Positions 1 to 64,000 of a stretch of 64,000 nucleotides of DNA are shown here, one piece after another. Source of the DNA: a virus; IMG/VR virus record IMGVR_UViG_3300023171_000013, positions 2,704 to 66,703 of that record. One strand, 5' to 3'. The notes under the pieces are model-generated. The model ran no database searches. It saw only the letters and a program-made list of their open reading frames with translations, and was not told the origin of the DNA. The position numbers were made by a program, and so were the translations under genes. How positions within the stretch are numbered: position 1 is the stretch's first letter; each line of letters starts with the position of its first letter.

Positions 1-78
1 CCCTCTATGGCTGTCTGTAAAATAGTTGCTAAAATAATAGAGAAGTCGCAAGTGGCGCGATACCACCATAACCCACCA
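1..78 (+). ncRNA. 3' part of a tRNA-like RNA, truncated by the window start
   Basis: T-arm-like GTGG-CGCGATA-CCAC followed by CATAACCC-A-CCA, ending 1 nt before the next tRNA; the 5' half is not visible. Confidence 0.5.
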
Positions 79-79
79 T

Positions 80-170
80 TCTCCCGTAGTGTAAAGTAGC
101 ACGAACAGCTTATACCTGTTGAGTCCTAGATTTGGGCGCAGTCTCGGTGCGAGTCCGAGCGGGAGAACCA
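80..170 (+). tRNA. tRNA-Ile(UAU) with a long variable arm
   Basis: Acceptor TCTCCCG/CGGGAGA, D stem GTGT/GCAC, anticodon arm AACAG-CT-TAT-AC-CTGTT, 22-nt variable region, T arm CTCGG-TGCGAGT-CCGAG, encoded CCA. Confidence 0.85.
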
Positions 171-174
171 CTTT

Positions 175-249
175 GGTCTGTAAGCGTAGAAAGCGACGTG
201 CCTTATTTGTAATTAGGATAGCGGGGCGCAAATCCCCGACAGACCTCCA
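175..249 (+). tRNA. tRNA-Thr(UGU)
   Basis: Acceptor GGTCTGT/ACAGACC, anticodon loop TT-TGT-AA, T arm CGGGG-CGCAAAT-CCCCG, CCA. Confidence 0.85.
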
Positions 250-252
250 CTT

Positions 253-323
253 GCCGACTGATTAAGAATCCGACTTCACTCGTAATGAAGACGAAGCGGG
301 CGCGATACCCGCAGTTGGCTCCA
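253..323 (+). tRNA. tRNA-Thr(CGU) with a minimal D-arm
   Basis: Acceptor GCCGACT/AGTTGGC, D hairpin GATT-AAG-AATC, anticodon arm CTTCA-CT-CGT-AA-TGAAG, T arm GCGGG/CCCGC, CCA. Confidence 0.75.
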
Positions 324-324
324 C

Positions 325-400
325 GTTGGCTATGGTCTAACAGTAAAGACACGAGGTTGTGATCCTCGGAATACGAGTGCGATTCTCGTTAGCCTCCCCA
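325..400 (+). tRNA. tRNA-His(GUG)
   Basis: Anticodon arm CGAGG-TT-GTG-AT-CCTCG, T arm ACGAG/CTCGT, G-1 opposite C73, CCA; the top two acceptor pairs are mismatched. Confidence 0.8.
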
Positions 401-402
401 AT

Positions 403-477
403 GGGTTTATCGTCCAATGTATAGGATACGAAGCTTCTACCTTTGAGATGCTGGTTAGATTCCAGCTAGACCCACCA
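403..477 (+). tRNA. tRNA-Arg(UCU)
   Basis: Acceptor GGGTTTA/TAGACCC, D stem GTCC/GGAT, anticodon loop CT-TCT-AC, T arm GCTGG-TTAGATT-CCAGC, CCA. Confidence 0.88.
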
Positions 478-483
478 CTTTAT

Positions 484-563
484 GCGAATGTATGCCGCCT
501 GTCTTCGAAACAGGAGAAAGCTAACTGGAATACATGTAGGTTCGACTCCTATCATTCGCGCCA
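484..563 (+). tRNA. Non-canonical tRNA-Arg(UCG): no D-arm, D-loop-like element in the variable region
   Basis: Acceptor GCGAATG/CATTCGC, 7-nt linker, anticodon arm CCTGT-CT-TCG-AA-ACAGG, 21-nt variable region containing GCTAACTGGAA, T arm GTAGG-TTCGACT-CCTAT, CCA. Confidence 0.75.
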
Positions 564-567
564 CTTT

Positions 568-644
568 GCAGGTATAATGGCACTGATTCCTAATCAGGAA
601 GCGCATAACGGATAATGAAGGTTCGACTCCTTTTACCTGCACCA
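568..644 (+). tRNA. Non-canonical tRNA-Arg(CCU): no D-arm, D-loop-like element in the variable region
   Basis: Acceptor GCAGGTA/TACCTGC, 7-nt linker, anticodon arm CTGA-TT-CCT-AA-TCAG, 18-nt variable region containing GCATAACGGATA, T arm GAAGG-TTCGACT-CCTTT, CCA. Confidence 0.75.
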
Positions 645-651
645 ATTTTAC

Positions 652-743
652 GGAAGCTGAAGCACCTGCGCTGGGGCGGGGACTCGTCTTGAAAACGAGA
701 TGTCGTTCAATCGGCTGGGGATCGTGCCCTCCGGCTTCCGCCA
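652..743 (+). tRNA. tRNA-Ser(UGA), 8/4 fold
   Basis: 8-bp acceptor GGAAGCTG/CGGCTTCC, anticodon arm CTCGT-CT-TGA-AA-ACGAG, variable arm, 4-bp T stem GGGG/CCTC, G73, CCA. Confidence 0.85.
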
Positions 744-751
744 ACTTTTAT

Positions 752-841
752 GGAAGGTTAACCAGCAAGGTGCTGGCTCTCATTGCTAATGAGAAGGACG
801 CATTAAAATGCGTTGGTAATCGTGCTATCAGCCTTCCGCCA
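752..841 (+). tRNA. tRNA-Ser(GCU), 8/4 fold
   Basis: 8-bp acceptor GGAAGGTT/AGCCTTCC, D stem CCAGC/GCTGG, anticodon arm TCTCA-TT-GCT-AA-TGAGA, V arm ACGCAT/ATGCGT, 4-bp T stem GGTA/TATC, G73, CCA. Confidence 0.88.
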
Positions 842-943
842 TCTTCCCCGTCGCGCCTCTAGCCGCAAGACAATGCGCAACAGACCATCACGAATCAACG
901 TGTGAACCTATCGGACGCGATAGACTAGGGGTGTTCCTTTTAC

Positions 944-988: not shown

Positions 989-1597
989 ATGAACAGCTTA
1001 CTAGAACAACCAGTGACTTTGCGCCTCAACTCAGCGTGGCAGGTGATCGGCTTTTCCAATCCGCGCACGGCAATCATTGCCATGACAGGTGGAGAGAAAG
1101 GCCAACGCCCCGCGCTCGCTATGGACATCATCTTCGATGAGAATGGCGAGTTTGCTTCCGCCATCCCTACAGACTGGGAGCATTGGATAAAACTGCCTAT
1201 TCGCGCAACGGATGCTGCCATCATGAGCAATCGCGGCCCTATCCGCCTGCCTACCGTGATTGTAAACCCTCGCTACTCTAGGATGCCAATGAAGCTGCCG
1301 CGCTTGACCAAGCAAGCCATCTTCGCCCGCGAGAAGGGGGTTTGTGGCTACTCAGGCAAGAAGCTGTCTAAAAACGAAGCTACAGTAGATCATATCTTGC
1401 CGCGTTCCCGTGGGGGTAAAGACTCATGGGAGAACCTTGTTCTCTGCGATAAGAGGATCAACTTCGATAAGGGTAGCCGGTTAAACGAAGAGATTGGGCT
1501 AAAGCTATCCAAGAAACCAAAAGCTCCTATGCCTATCCCTGCTTCTTCCACCATCACGCAGATCAACCACCCGCATTGGGCCTACTTCCTCAAGTGA
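989..1597 (+). CDS. HNH endonuclease (McrA-like)
   Basis: LRLNSAWQ N-terminus; IFAREKGVCGYSG...ATVDHILPRSRGGKDSWENLVLCDKRINFDKG motif. Confidence 0.9.
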   Translation: MNSLLEQPVTLRLNSAWQVIGFSNPRTAIIAMTGGEKGQRPALAMDIIFDENGEFASAIPTDWEHWIKLPIRATDAAIMSNRGPIRLPTVIVNPRYSRMPMKLPRLTKQAIFAREKGVCGYSGKKLSKNEATVDHILPRSRGGKDSWENLVLCDKRINFDKGSRLNEEIGLKLSKKPKAPMPIPASSTITQINHPHWAYFLK

Positions 1598-2214
1598 CTC
1601 CCATAAATTTCAAAAAGGTCAAGCCGTGGACAAAGAAGAAAACCAAGGAATATACCGAGGCTGATATTACGCCCATTCCTCGCAGCGATATAATCACCAT
1701 AGACCTTCCTGCTTCCGCCATTGTATTCACCGAAGATGACGGAACCCCTATGCGCGAAACCGTAGCGGTTAAACAAAGCAATATAAAGTATATCGAGTGG
1801 GACTTTAGTTTTGGCGACTTCGCAGCAGTAGACAATTTCCATATCCACAAACTACCAATAGCGGGAGCTAGAGAACTTCTACCAATTAGCATACTGAAAC
1901 CTACCTCCTACACGCTTCCATATCCAAAAACAGAATCAGGCAAACAATATTACTGCATCATGGTAAAAGCCGAGAGCGATAAGCCATCGAAATCAATTCA
2001 GGAAATCATGATTTGCGCTATTGGAAATTATAAAGTCACAGATACACCTACTCAAGCTATCCGAACTGGAAACAACGAAGCTGTATTAGATAAAGGATCA
2101 ATAATATCAGCCGCCATCGGCCACAGCTCTTTAGTATGGGAAGATCATGCACATAAAAAGATTCACTACCTAGTCCAGATTGTCCTAGAACCCAGCAAGC
2201 TCACCTATCTATGA
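1576..2214 (+). CDS. Hypothetical protein
   Basis: 212-aa ORF coupled to its neighbours; the start may be the GTG at 1594. Confidence 0.65.
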   Translation: MGLLPQVTPINFKKVKPWTKKKTKEYTEADITPIPRSDIITIDLPASAIVFTEDDGTPMRETVAVKQSNIKYIEWDFSFGDFAAVDNFHIHKLPIAGARELLPISILKPTSYTLPYPKTESGKQYYCIMVKAESDKPSKSIQEIMICAIGNYKVTDTPTQAIRTGNNEAVLDKGSIISAAIGHSSLVWEDHAHKKIHYLVQIVLEPSKLTYL

Positions 2215-63847: not shown

Positions 63848-63902
63848 AAGAGGAGTAAGCAAGCGCATCGCATTTAGCATGGTTTGCCTACTCCTCTTTT
63901 TT
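63848..63902 (+). terminator. Long hairpin plus T-run (terminator or small structured RNA)
   Basis: AAGAGGAGTAAGCAAGC...GTTTGCCTACTCCTCTT followed by TTTT. Confidence 0.6.
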
Positions 63903-63904
63903 AT

Positions 63905-63979
63905 GGCCGATTCGTATAGAAGTTAATACACTGTCCTTTCACGACAGGAACAGGGGAGCGTTACCCCTATCGGCTACCA
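63905..63979 (+). tRNA. tRNA-Glu(UUC)
   Basis: Acceptor GGCCGAT/ATCGGCT, D stem GTAT/ATAC, anticodon arm CTGTC-CT-TTC-AC-GACAG, T arm AGGGG-AGCGTTA-CCCCT, CCA. Confidence 0.85.
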
Positions 63980-64000
63980 CTTTCCTGTCGTGAAAGGACA

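Follow-up and report, generated by a model that had tools for sequence, protein, structure and literature searches.

Two tRNA-Arg genes of a phage tRNA array belong to a widespread family with a predicted rewired cloverleaf

Two neighbouring genes of a phage tRNA array, a tRNA-Arg(UCG) and a tRNA-Arg(CCU), lack the D-arm hairpin and carry, on the 3' side of the anticodon arm, a D-loop-like block that in their relatives pairs back to the short linker between the acceptor and anticodon stems. Judging from sequence comparison, both are probably functional elongator tRNA-Arg species of a family that is widespread in phage and other mobile tRNA arrays and that represents a topological variant of the cloverleaf. 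The connectivity of the cloverleaf in cytosolic-type tRNAs is, to our knowledge, among the most invariant features of biology, and tRNAs lacking an arm are usually presented as a speciality of animal mitochondria. The genes lie near the start of a stretch of 64,000 nucleotides of viral DNA (positions 2,704 to 66,703 of IMG/VR record IMGVR_UViG_3300023171_000013), referred to below as the window.

Architecture of the two genes

A first-pass annotation made from the letters alone had described two genes of one shared, abnormal plan, and the sequence reads as it stated (Table 1). Both acceptors are perfect 7-bp helices (484-490 with 553-559 in gene 1), and just 7 nt separate the acceptor stem from the anticodon stem, a D-arm hairpin between positions 9 and 26 being absent. 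The class I features that both genes display are the 7-bp acceptor, a discriminator (G in gene 1, A in gene 2) followed by CCA, an anticodon arm of 5 bp and 7 nt, and a TTCRA T loop; U33 and a purine at position 37 are found in both anticodon loops. The anticodon stem of gene 1 (498-502 with 510-514) covaries in the family, and in gene 2 the top pair of this stem, A582.G598, is a mismatch; 28 of 96 family members, gene 2 included, lack a pair there.

Table 1. Features of the two genes and of their canonical neighbour, in window coordinates
Feature	Position	Strand	Remarks
Canonical tRNA-Arg(UCU), neighbour	403..477	+	ARAGORN call; RF00005 56.2 bits
Gene 1, rewired tRNA-Arg(UCG)	484..563	+	80 nt including encoded CCA; from sequence reading
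Gene 1 linker TATGCCG	491..497	+	7 nt; from family covariation and R2 alignment
Gene 1 anticodon loop CTTCGAA	503..509	+	anticodon TCG at 505-507
Gene 1 post-anticodon segment	515..535	+	21 nt; from family consensus and sequence reading
Gene 1 T arm	536..552	+	5-bp stem, first pair G.U; loop TTCGACT
Gene 2, rewired tRNA-Arg(CCU)	568..644	+	77 nt including encoded CCA
Gene 2 linker TAATGGC	575..581	+	7 nt; from RNAfold and subfamily counts
Gene 2 anticodon loop TTCCTAA	587..593	+	anticodon CCT at 589-591
Gene 2 post-anticodon segment	599..616	+	18 nt; from family consensus and sequence reading
Gene 2 T arm	617..633	+	loop TTCGACT, same as gene 1

In gene 1 the segment after the anticodon arm opens with a spacer (515-519); next come the helix strand GCTA (520-523) and the D-loop-like stretch AACTGGAATA (523-532), in which GG occupies 527-528 and 529 is the A20-like A, and CAT (533-535) closes the segment. 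T491 and A492 of the linker stand opposite A523 and T522, G494 faces C521 and C495 faces G520, while T493 is bulged and C496 and G497 are left without a partner. The order is the same in gene 2: two spacer bases (AA) precede the helix strand GCGCATA (601-607), and the D-loop-like stretch AACGGATA (607-614), whose GG lies at 610-611 and whose A20-like A lies at 612, is followed by a closing AT. Here T575 and A576 lie opposite A607 and T606 and are joined by T578:A605, G579:C604, G580:C602 and C581:G601, with A577 bulged in the linker and G603 in the segment.

Single-sequence folding treats the two genes differently. The minimum-energy structure that RNAfold gives for gene 2 contains AUGGC paired with GC.CAU, whereas that for gene 1 disrupts the acceptor stem and does not recover the family fold (z = -0.75). 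The pairing of UAUGCC with GGAAUA that RNAfold proposes for gene 1 was dropped, since neither gene 2 nor the family conserves it.

Detection by tRNA search tools

Of the four tRNAs that ARAGORN calls in the window, none is gene 1 or gene 2. The Rfam tRNA model RF00005 scores gene 1 at 39.0 bits and gene 2 at 32.3 bits, with a gathering score of 29, and in its default gathering mode lists gene 1 and leaves out gene 2. To fit either gene it reduces 15 model positions of the D-arm to 4 nt and opens insertions in the variable region of 18 nt (gene 1) and 15 nt (gene 2). That standard finders would overlook such genes had been anticipated in the first-pass annotation, and it extends to the relatives described below: ARAGORN calls overlap 9 of 245 family members among the matches listed, which means that more than 95% of the members listed escape it. 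In the GenBank records of carriers the genes are unannotated or mis-called, one of them as tRNA-Phe.

A family of relatives in phages and mobile arrays

Relatives with the same architecture were sought, together with covariation between their linkers and segments, and both were found. Three scans of viral contigs with degenerate patterns returned at least 118, at least 120 and at least 120 stretches, and a parser assigned at least 245 members to the family, whose limits and arginine bias are partly set by the parser itself, as it demanded a TAA..GG motif and a T-loop near TTCGA. Members were further required to carry an allowed anticodon and to reach a stem score of 15 of 17 or more; the set of 245 was restricted in addition to those with the two Watson-Crick linker pairs. 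False positives of the parser were ordinary tRNAs misread as lacking a D-arm, for example a tRNA-Met with TAAC in its anticodon loop; Microcystis phage Mwe-JY26 and Aeromonas phage APT65 gave blast matches that failed to parse as members. Carriers verified among cultured phages are phages of Streptomyces (for instance Mildred21 and Francob), Xanthomonas (XacN1), Pseudomonas (vB_PF_Y1-MI) and Microbacterium (Zooman).

Both window genes are members of this family. They have a 7-nt linker starting with TA, a TAAYNGG loop and a segment ending in AT, and R2, a covariance model derived from 94 relatives and not from the window sequences, scores gene 1 at 86.1 bits (E 2e-22) and gene 2 at 63.1 bits (E 1e-15), the next best score in the 64 kb being the 21.1 bits of the canonical tRNA-Arg(TCT). 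In the R2 alignment all four linker pairs of gene 1 are formed.

CCA is encoded in 158 of the 245 members among the matches listed, genes 1 and 2 included. Of the 237 members with arginine anticodons among these matches, 69 have T and 5 have C as the discriminator; at position 73 the ArgRS of E. coli favours A or G. The arginine character assigned by the first-pass annotation applies to nearly all members, although the family is not strictly arginine-specific, a few having Ile, Met/Ile or Lys anticodons.

The surroundings of the family are rich in tRNAs, with five or more in 134 of 215 loci (among matches listed). Among the bacterial loci examined, 23 of 30 hold at least 10 tRNAs per 8 kb, and the idea that the gene is generally the sole, vertically inherited cellular tRNA-Arg(UCU), as considered for Blastocatellia and Chthonomonadaceae, was rejected on the ground that these 23 loci are dense arrays. 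In one bacterial genome (G001), 21 of 63 tRNA matches fall within 622-632 kb of the contig that carries the rewired gene (C15).

Close variants of gene 1 were found in contigs of four DNA runs, which provides evidence at the level of DNA and is silent on expression; RNA runs searched for window positions 300-900 yielded none containing the region. The variants have lost one base at 525 and one at 529, both within the range of loop sizes in the family, and in relatives of gene 1 changes in the T stem at 537/551 and at 552 preserve the pairs, while one at 538 produces a G.U. Near-identical gene copies (X2-X4) are present in contigs derived from the runs of another study.

These data bear on the simplest objection to the genes, that they are decayed tRNA pseudogenes or artefacts of assembly, as their rejection by ARAGORN and their low Rfam scores might suggest. 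The comparative data refute this reading, which we regard as having virtually no probability: conserved relatives number in the hundreds and show compensatory changes in all stems, the near-identical copies come from contigs of another study, and the genes are present in the genomes of cultured phages.

Covariation between the linker and the displaced segment

The pairing of the linker was examined in 173 unique members with a 7-nt linker, counted before the filter on Watson-Crick linker pairs was applied and found with search patterns that leave the tested positions untouched; the counts refer to sequences and not to independent events. Linker positions are given as L1 to L7, the base just 5' of the conserved TAAYNGG loop as pre[-1] and the next base as pre[-2]. 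L4 and pre[-1] form a Watson-Crick pair in all 173 members, with 81.9 expected if the two were independent, and do so with all four pair types (C:G 114, G:C 22, T:A 21, A:T 16). Likewise, L5 and pre[-2] are Watson-Crick in 172 of 173 (C:G 87, G:C 60, T:A 17, A:T 8), L6 and pre[-3] in 92 of 173, and shifted registers reach 18-68%. Ten of the 11 haplotypes of the two pairs are fully complementary, and each major one occurs with several anticodons. In an alignment of 96 sequences to a model lacking the linker pairs, the column pair 11:42 is CG in 61, GC in 11, UA in 11, AU in 8 and another combination in 4, and 97.6% of the whole structure is paired, a share that falls to 66.4% on shuffling and to 41-46% on sliding.

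By these comparative criteria the family possesses a helix between linker and segment, in keeping with the first-pass proposal that the linker pairs with the displaced block and thereby rebuilds a D-stem and D-loop. The exact pairings proposed there also agree with the family: TA.GC with GCTA in gene 1 is the family register, and ATGGC with GC.CAT and its bulged G in gene 2 recurs in the subfamily with G opposite G, where L6 pairs with pre[-4] in 21 of 21 and L7 with pre[-5] in 18 of 21. Among the 7-nt-linker members as a whole, pairing of L7 was not detected (18 of 173, with 19.7 expected). The obligatory covarying pairs of the helix number only two; the flanking T-A and A-T pairs are invariant, so that tertiary contacts such as U8:A14 are an alternative for them.

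Could the genes then be plain D-armless tRNAs of the kind of mitochondrial tRNA-Ser(AGY), with a floppy long variable region, no defined helix and a chance likeness to a D-loop? The helix is indeed short, with its two obligatory pairs, and RNAfold misses it in gene 1. We nevertheless consider this very unlikely, given that both pairs are Watson-Crick in practically every member through four pair types and that shifted registers fail, and given the conservation of the TAAYNGG loop and of the AT that closes the segment (T in 172 of 173). Relatives with an 8-nt linker moreover have a second covarying helix that encloses the loop. The corresponding outer helix, pairing linker positions 1-3 with the bases after GGA, was rejected for the 7-nt type, because no position after the loop exceeds the expected Watson-Crick pairing with L3 or has notable mutual information with it.

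The acceptor, anticodon and T stems show many compensatory changes, with all 7 acceptor pairs covarying among the 96 members, and the genes are therefore under tRNA-like selection. RNAalifold predicts no stems beyond these three classical ones in the 96-sequence alignment, in which insertion columns divide the partner bases of the new helix.

Arginine identity and anticodon complementarity

The identity set of tRNA-Arg of the E. coli and T. thermophilus type consists of A20, C35 and G or U at position 36. Both genes have C35 with G36 or U36 by virtue of their anticodons TCG and CCT, and in both an A directly follows GG within the displaced loop. Among family members lying outside all search patterns, the loop reads GGA in 15 of 15 with arginine anticodons and GGT in 7 of 7 with other anticodons; in the sequences compared, GGA is thus associated with arginine anticodons. 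This split suggests selection for synthetase identity and is what would be expected if the A after GG were an A20-like element for ArgRS, so that the relocated GG-A element put forward in the first-pass annotation fits the comparative data.

The anticodons of the family complement those of the canonical arginine tRNAs in the same arrays. Among the matches listed, a rewired and a canonical gene share an anticodon in 8 of 102 loci that have both, compared with a mean of 34.5 after shuffling (none of 5000 shuffles was as low); a case of sharing is Microbacterium phage Zooman, where a canonical ACG gene adjoins a rewired ACG gene. The window follows the general pattern, with UCU as the anticodon of the canonical gene and UCG and CCU as those of the rewired ones, without overlap.

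The complementarity is relevant to the possibility that the genes encode structured tRNA-like RNAs acting outside translation, as decoys or sponges that occupy tRNA-targeting nucleases of host defence or modification enzymes, or in another role, with stems kept only for processing and stability. Their location would suit such a role, since the family sits in the tRNA-rich phage and mobile arrays described above and tRNA arrays are linked to counter-defence in the parts of two publications considered here (PMC10264068; PMC11464382). In addition, some irregular array tRNAs are charged yet unused in translation, according to the portion of Mukai et al. drawn on here (PMC5389517). Since decoys should resemble what they mimic, anticodons that are almost exclusively arginine and rarely coincide with those of the canonical set speak against this reading, as do U33, A37, the 7/5 acceptor/T branch and CCA, all of which are canonical, and the GGA/GGT split with its hint of synthetase identity. 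On balance, a role outside translation appears unlikely.

The array and its phage

The array that holds genes 1 and 2 comprises about 31 genes and, on the same contig, extends 2.7 kb beyond the window on its upstream side. Nine tRNA-like genes lie inside the window, and among these the two are the only ones with a TTCGA T-loop; for the array as a whole, of which the first-pass annotation had stated it, this does not hold, as the upstream part contains two more such genes (contig positions 984-1058 and 2293-2369). Among 731 arginine codons in the long open reading frames of the phage, 88 are CGA and 92 AGG. Most of the large open reading frames were left without a name after Pfam and PHROGs searches.

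Close relatives of the phage itself were also sought. Blastn of window positions 1-900 against a phage collection and an exact 30-nt pattern against viral contigs gave no match, a search via the DnaB protein found no relatives, and one via the phosphatase protein led to two distant loci, both without tRNAs.

Proposed fold and function

In the proposed fold, the half formed by the acceptor and T arm as well as the anticodon arm would be canonical, with the D hairpin missing. The 7-nt linker, coming after an invariant U equivalent to U8, would lead directly into the anticodon stem and pair with bases a few nucleotides 3' of that stem, giving a putative pseudo-D stem of 4-5 bp that contains a single bulge and is able to stack on the anticodon stem. 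From this helix the chain would continue with the conserved D-loop-like UAAYNGG(A), its GG positioned for docking on the canonical T-loop; in arginine members the A after GG would take the place of the ArgRS identity element A20, and a conserved A-U would end the segment ahead of the T stem. Expressed in canonical numbering, the block 10-21, that is the 5' strand of the D-stem and the D-loop, would be shifted from between 9 and 22 to between 44/45 and 46-48. On this model the RNAs would adopt an L-shaped three-dimensional fold, be charged by ArgRS and decode CGA/CGG and AGG.

The rewiring of the cloverleaf may be explained by escape from D-arm-reading host factors or by a frozen accident spread through horizontal transfer of arrays. 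A stronger version of the proposal, which we put forward tentatively and consider rather doubtful, is that the family constitutes a third, fully active architecture of elongator tRNAs beside classes I and II, kept and spread by phages and mobile arrays because, once the D hairpin is gone, host defence nucleases or modification enzymes recognising the D-arm or core might overlook the tRNA, with its A20-like element still in place.

Relation to known tRNAs

With canonical class I tRNA-Arg the genes share the acceptor, CCA, the anticodon arm with U33 and A37, the TTCGA T arm and a GG-A resembling G18, G19 and A20. They differ from it in having 7 nt in place of positions 8-26 and in carrying the D-loop-like block and one D-stem strand, 18-21 nt in all, after the anticodon arm, from where it pairs back to the linker.

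The short connector between acceptor and anticodon stems is also found in D-armless mitochondrial tRNAs such as mammalian mt-tRNA-Ser(AGY) and nematode mt-tRNA-Ser(UCU), at least as presented in the part of the source considered (PMC7609411). These mitochondrial tRNAs are described as having a short variable region, degenerate T-loops and no elbow between GG and the T-loop, and as needing adapted partners (PMC7609411 in part). In contrast, the rewired family has a canonical T-loop, a GG loop located elsewhere in the chain and an 18-21-nt segment, and it occurs in a phage and bacterial setting.

Class II tRNAs (Leu, Ser, Tyr, Sec) and allo-tRNAs likewise have a long stretch separating anticodon and T arms, and irregular tRNAs with long variable arms are reported from phage and Acidobacteria tRNA clusters in the portion of the study cited (PMC5389517). 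According to the same portion, the variable arm of class II and allo-tRNAs is paired with itself, a D-arm is present, and the branch of allo-tRNAs is 8/4 or 9/3 (PMC5389517). In the rewired genes, by contrast, the segment has its partner strand in the linker rather than within itself, a D hairpin is missing and the branch is 7/5.

In the red alga Cyanidioschyzon merolae, whole tRNA genes are circularly permuted and processing restores a canonical tRNA. A non-canonical order of blocks is common to both systems, whereas the rewired genes have normal ends and only block 10-21 out of place, and their mature RNA would be expected to keep the new order. One might still suppose that cutting and rejoining, or some other rearrangement, turns the precursors into a canonical cloverleaf, in the manner of intron-containing or permuted tRNA genes, and lengths of 77-80 nt together with a displaced D-loop-like block could be taken as signs of it. 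Both acceptor strands are, however, already terminal and CCA is encoded, no removal of a single block yields a D hairpin plus an anticodon arm on reading the sequence, and the helix between linker and segment is under selection, whereas a junction that is spliced out would need none; rearrangement is, in our view, of even slighter probability than a floppy D-armless tRNA.

The genomic setting, in turn, is that of the long tRNA arrays known from phages, plasmids and chromosomes (PMC8421152; PMC12803027; PMC5966550; PMC6409571; each considered in part). Two of these papers treat arrays and the sequence divergence of array tRNAs, and the parts considered do not contain the fold (PMC8421152; PMC12803027). 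The first-pass annotation had known of no named class with this topology, and a description of the fold was likewise absent from Rfam and from the literature searched, to which it should be added that the supplements of Mukai et al. (PMC5389517), covering phage and Acidobacteria clusters, might hold examples.

Implications for phage tRNA biology

Since ARAGORN overlooks most members of the family and GenBank records lack or mislabel them, phage tRNA repertoires and analyses of codon compensation under-count arginine isoacceptors. If the genes are functional, an L-shape would be possible by another order of strands, with the canonical elbow and the synthetase identity elements kept, and rewired tRNAs would be present in hundreds of phage and mobile clusters, including those of cultured phages open to work at the bench. 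The family may thus serve as a natural test case for how ArgRS reads A20, for how far EF-Tu and the ribosome tolerate rewiring of the core and for the design of orthogonal tRNAs, and it makes testable whether phage tRNAs can escape tRNA-targeting immunity by their structure and not by changes in the anticodon loop.

A tRNA-Arg gene pair without a D hairpin in a phage tRNA array

The virus record totals 66.7 kb, of which the window covers bases 2704–66703. The window opens with the last part of a tRNA gene array, which fills its first 850 bases; the array begins farther upstream on the contig and numbers about 31 tRNA-like genes, every one of them on the + strand with a terminal CCA. Within it, the sequences of gene 1 and gene 2 match exactly the plan described for them in the first-pass annotation, with a short linker in place of the D-arm and a long segment after the anticodon arm. 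ARAGORN calls four tRNAs in the window and misses both genes. The Rfam tRNA model scores gene 1 at 39.0 bits and gene 2 at 32.3 bits, but only in alignments that delete 15 D-arm positions (4 nt left) and carry variable-region insertions of 18 nt in gene 1 and 15 nt in gene 2, and no Rfam family other than tRNA fits either gene.

Features of the window, its contig and related loci
Feature	Position	Strand	Description
Gene 1, tRNA-Arg(UCG)	window 484–563	+	perfect 7-bp acceptor; linker TATGCCG; 5-bp anticodon stem; anticodon loop CTTCGAA (TCG); post-anticodon segment 21 nt; T-loop TTCGACT; discriminator G, then CCA
Gene 2, tRNA-Arg(CCU)	window 568–644	+	7-bp acceptor; linker TAATGGC; A.G on top of anticodon stem; anticodon loop TTCCTAA (CCT); post-anticodon segment 18 nt; T-loop TTCGACT; discriminator A, then CCA
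tRNA, anticodon TAT	window 80–170	+	91 nt; long variable arm; apparently 7/5 branch; ARAGORN: tRNA-Ile(tat)
Two tRNA-Ser-like genes	window 652–743 and 752–841	+	long variable arms; loops with TGA and GCT; T-loops ATCGTGC; both missed by ARAGORN
HNH endonuclease gene	window 989–1597		Pfam HNH_4, E 7.6e-12; directly downstream of array
Second ORF	~contig 1629–2070		interrupts array upstream of window
Repeat at contig end	window 63860–63980		recurrence of ~125 bases of contig start, incl. tRNA-Glu(TTC) gene
Rewired member, Streptomyces phage Mildred21	L133:1501–1579 = MF155946.1 91367–91442		GenBank: tRNA-Phe(gaa)
Non-Arg rewired members (GAT, TAT, CAT, CTT), viral loci	L033:3874–3953; L247; L251; L254:5506–5585		
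Further non-Arg rewired members, viral loci	L230:3146–3225; L346:2786–2865; L232:11000–11080; L325:7511–7594		
tRNA-Pro(TGG)-like gene, viral locus	L016:4229–4313		normal D-arm; 15-nt variable region with GTAATGG

The claim that the two genes have the only TTCGA T-loops of the array fails once the whole array is considered, in which they are two of four. Most array genes (window 80–477 and 652–841; contig G000:C1:47–3544) have unusual T-loops of the types AGCGTTA/AGCGTAA/AGCATTA/AGCATAA, TGCAACT/TGCGAGT/TGCGATT, CGCAAAT/CGCGATA and GGCAGAA; these non-canonical genes have G instead of U at position 55 and D-loops without GG (e.g., AATAGTA, AGTAGTA), which together resemble an alternative elbow that co-varies. 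Of the approximately 31 array genes, ARAGORN recognises only 11. Its tRNA-Ile(tat) calls of 90–93 nt, such as the one at the head of the window, occur in many bacterial arrays carrying rewired Arg genes, and UAU is reported as a predominant allo-tRNA anticodon (Mukai et al., PMC5389517). The first of the tRNA-Ser-like genes reaches 28.8 bits against the Rfam tRNA-Sec model, under its threshold of 47. The repeated contig ends suggest that the genome either has a terminal repeat or is circularly permuted, and that the tRNA array bridges the junction.

A large family found by its architecture

No close relatives of the window phage were found in phage and viral-contig collections by blastn, exact-pattern or protein routes, and the search was therefore made by the architecture itself, with a degenerate pattern built from features common to both genes (TAAC, GGA and the T-loop). 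A first scan of viral contigs returned at least 118 stretches, the majority ordinary tRNA-Met; about two dozen among the matches listed followed the plan of gene 1 and gene 2, each with an Arg anticodon. Two more specific patterns returned at least 120 stretches each. A parser requiring three classical stems, a 6–9-nt linker, TAA followed by GG in the segment and a T-loop near TTCGA accepted at least 238 unique candidates from 351 loci, counts that refer to sequences rather than independent events. At least 173 unique sequences share the 7-nt linker of both window genes, and at least about 39 have an 8-nt linker. The anticodons among the 173 listed are TCT (65), ACG (52), TCG (29), CCT (18), CCG (1) and GCG (1), besides the non-Arg GAT (3), TAT (2), CAT (1) and CTT (1), a non-Arg share that may be misjudged since the patterns favour GGA and TTCGA.

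Under a covariance model of 23 members, built without linker pairs, 7-nt-linker members reach at least 61 bits and 8-nt-linker members 44–57 bits, and no ordinary tRNA exceeds 44 bits. In a second model of 94 members, which includes linker pairs and leaves out the window sequences, gene 1 scores 86.1 bits (E 2e-22) and gene 2 63.1 bits (E 1e-15), with four linker pairs forming in each, while the next match in the window, a canonical tRNA-Arg, scores 21.1 bits. By these model scores, gene 1 and gene 2 are members of a large rewired family.

Linker–segment pairing and the proposed fold

Pairing was assessed with segments anchored on the TAA motif alone, ignoring pairing, and neither linker positions 4–6 (L4–L6) nor their partners were constrained by the search patterns. 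Among the 173 listed 7-nt-linker members, L4 and the base immediately preceding TAA form a Watson–Crick pair in all 173 (C:G 114, G:C 22, T:A 21, A:T 16; 81.9 expected if independent), L5 with the next base in 172 (C:G 87, G:C 60, T:A 17, A:T 8; 67.0 expected) and L6 with the third base in 92 (56.3 expected); in the same set shifted registers give far fewer pairs, L3 has no partner and no pairing of L7 is detectable. Ten of the 11 two-pair haplotypes are complementary, and the common ones occur across several anticodons. The formal covariation count used a 96-sequence alignment made with a model lacking linker pairs. In its fixed columns one linker pair reads CG in 61, GC in 11, UA in 11, AU in 8 and other in 4 sequences, and for the whole structure 97.6% of cells are paired, compared with 66.4% when shuffled and 41–46% when slid. 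L1–L2 (TA) lie opposite the first two bases of the TAA motif (91 and 95 of the 96 sequences); because they are invariant, covariation does not distinguish Watson–Crick pairing from a tertiary contact of the U8:A14 type. The top anticodon-stem pair is mismatched in 28 of the 96 members. The earlier pairing of ATGGC with GC.CAT in gene 2 agrees with its subfamily, in which one bulged G is followed by two extra pairs (21/21 and 18/21 sequences). Folding gene 1 as a single sequence does not recover the rewired fold.

The proposed fold is read against the canonical tertiary pairs of yeast tRNA-Phe, namely U8:A14:A21, G15:C48, 10:25:45, 26:44, 13:22:46, G18:psi55 and G19:C56. In this fold, the linker would be continuous with the anticodon stem's 5' strand like positions 22–26 of a normal tRNA, and its partner strand would leave the 3' strand toward the elbow like positions 10–13. 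The conserved A-A-Y-N-G-G(-A) would then correspond to A14, A15, 16, 17, G18, G19 and (A)20, and the segment's last U, found in 172 of the 173 listed members, to U48 facing A15. Block 10–21 would thus be shifted from between 9 and 22 to between 44/45 and 46–48, with the new chain joins linking nucleotides adjacent in the canonical L-shape. This makes more precise the displaced D-stem and D-loop of the first-pass annotation, whose linker–segment helix covaries.

The 8-nt linkers (L030, L050, L070, L152 and other viral loci) consist of T, three bases, C and three more. In these relatives, linker positions 2–4 form an extra helix with the three bases directly after GGA, which covaries (AGC:GCT, AAC:GTT, AGT:ACT, AAT:ATT, AAA:TTT, AGA:TCT), so that the D-loop-like element becomes an enclosed 7–8-nt bulge; the bulge sits on a long helix that extends the anticodon stem without a break.

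Comparative evidence for a probable function as arginine tRNAs

That the rewired genes work as Arg tRNAs is supported by comparative evidence. Compensatory changes are abundant in the acceptor, anticodon and T stems. Among 22 members found outside the GGA-containing patterns, GGA occurs in all 15 with Arg anticodons and GGT in all seven others (three GAT, two TAT, one CAT and one CTT), the split predicted by selection for an A20-like ArgRS determinant. The listed non-Arg members have GGT, not GGA, after the loop GG in all but one case. The GTAATGG of the tRNA-Pro(TGG)-like gene resembles the displaced loop of the family. Rewired and canonical Arg genes share an anticodon at only 8 of 102 listed loci with at least one of each (shuffled mean 34.5; none of 5000 shuffles as low), and in the window canonical UCU and rewired UCG and CCU do not overlap. 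The long ORFs of the phage contain 731 Arg codons, 88 of them CGA and 92 AGG. A search of RNA runs for the region of the two genes gave no match. Of the 237 Arg members listed, 74 have T or C as the discriminator. As to why the rewiring was kept, one may speculate that it lets the tRNA escape D-arm-reading host factors, or that it is a frozen accident spread by array transfer.

Carriers and annotation

Five cultured phages were verified as carriers. The Mildred21 member has 5-bp stems flanking a 7-nt loop CTTCGAA, hence anticodon TCG (Arg) and not the annotated gaa, and in Streptomyces phage Francob, Xanthomonas phage XacN1, Pseudomonas phage vB_PF_Y1-MI and Microbacterium phage Zooman the rewired gene is unannotated. 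Two further phage blast matches were not accepted by the parser as members. The rewired tRNA of Mildred21 also has an HNH gene next to it. ARAGORN overlaps 9 of the 245 members listed, with the right isotype for five.

At least five ARAGORN tRNAs lie at 134 of the 215 listed loci with members. In one genome per prokaryotic species, the same pattern matched 97 stretches, of which 33 parse as members; dense arrays (at least 10 tRNAs per 8 kb) surround 23 of 30 bacterial loci examined, and in the single genome searched in full, a stretch of about 10 kb on the contig of the rewired gene contains 21 of the 63 tRNA matches. The idea that a rewired gene is the sole cellular tRNA-Arg(UCU) in some Acidobacteria was rejected, the bacterial loci examined being mostly dense tRNA arrays. 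Judged by these settings, phage and other mobile tRNA arrays carry the family as cargo.

The linker of gene 1 is identical to that of a relative on another contig (L026) and the segments are almost identical; sequence comparison suggests that the wider family was the source of both window genes. Near-identical copies of gene 1 are present on contigs from runs X2–X4, which belong to another study; in these copies T-stem changes preserve pairing and 1-nt loop deletions fall inside the family's range.

Relation to known tRNA variants

Gene 1 and gene 2 have every tRNA-defining feature tested except the D hairpin. In contrast to mitochondrial D-armless tRNAs, they would combine an intact elbow with a long, structured segment, and they differ from class II tRNAs and allo-tRNAs, which have a self-paired variable arm together with a D-arm, with an 8/4 or 9/3 branch in allo-tRNAs. 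Permuted tRNA genes are different again: there the circular permutation affects the entire gene, and a canonical tRNA is regained on processing. Full-text literature searches, covering main texts, yielded no description of the rewired fold. The rewired family is real and widespread, goes largely unannotated, and is best regarded as a structural variant of the known tRNA.
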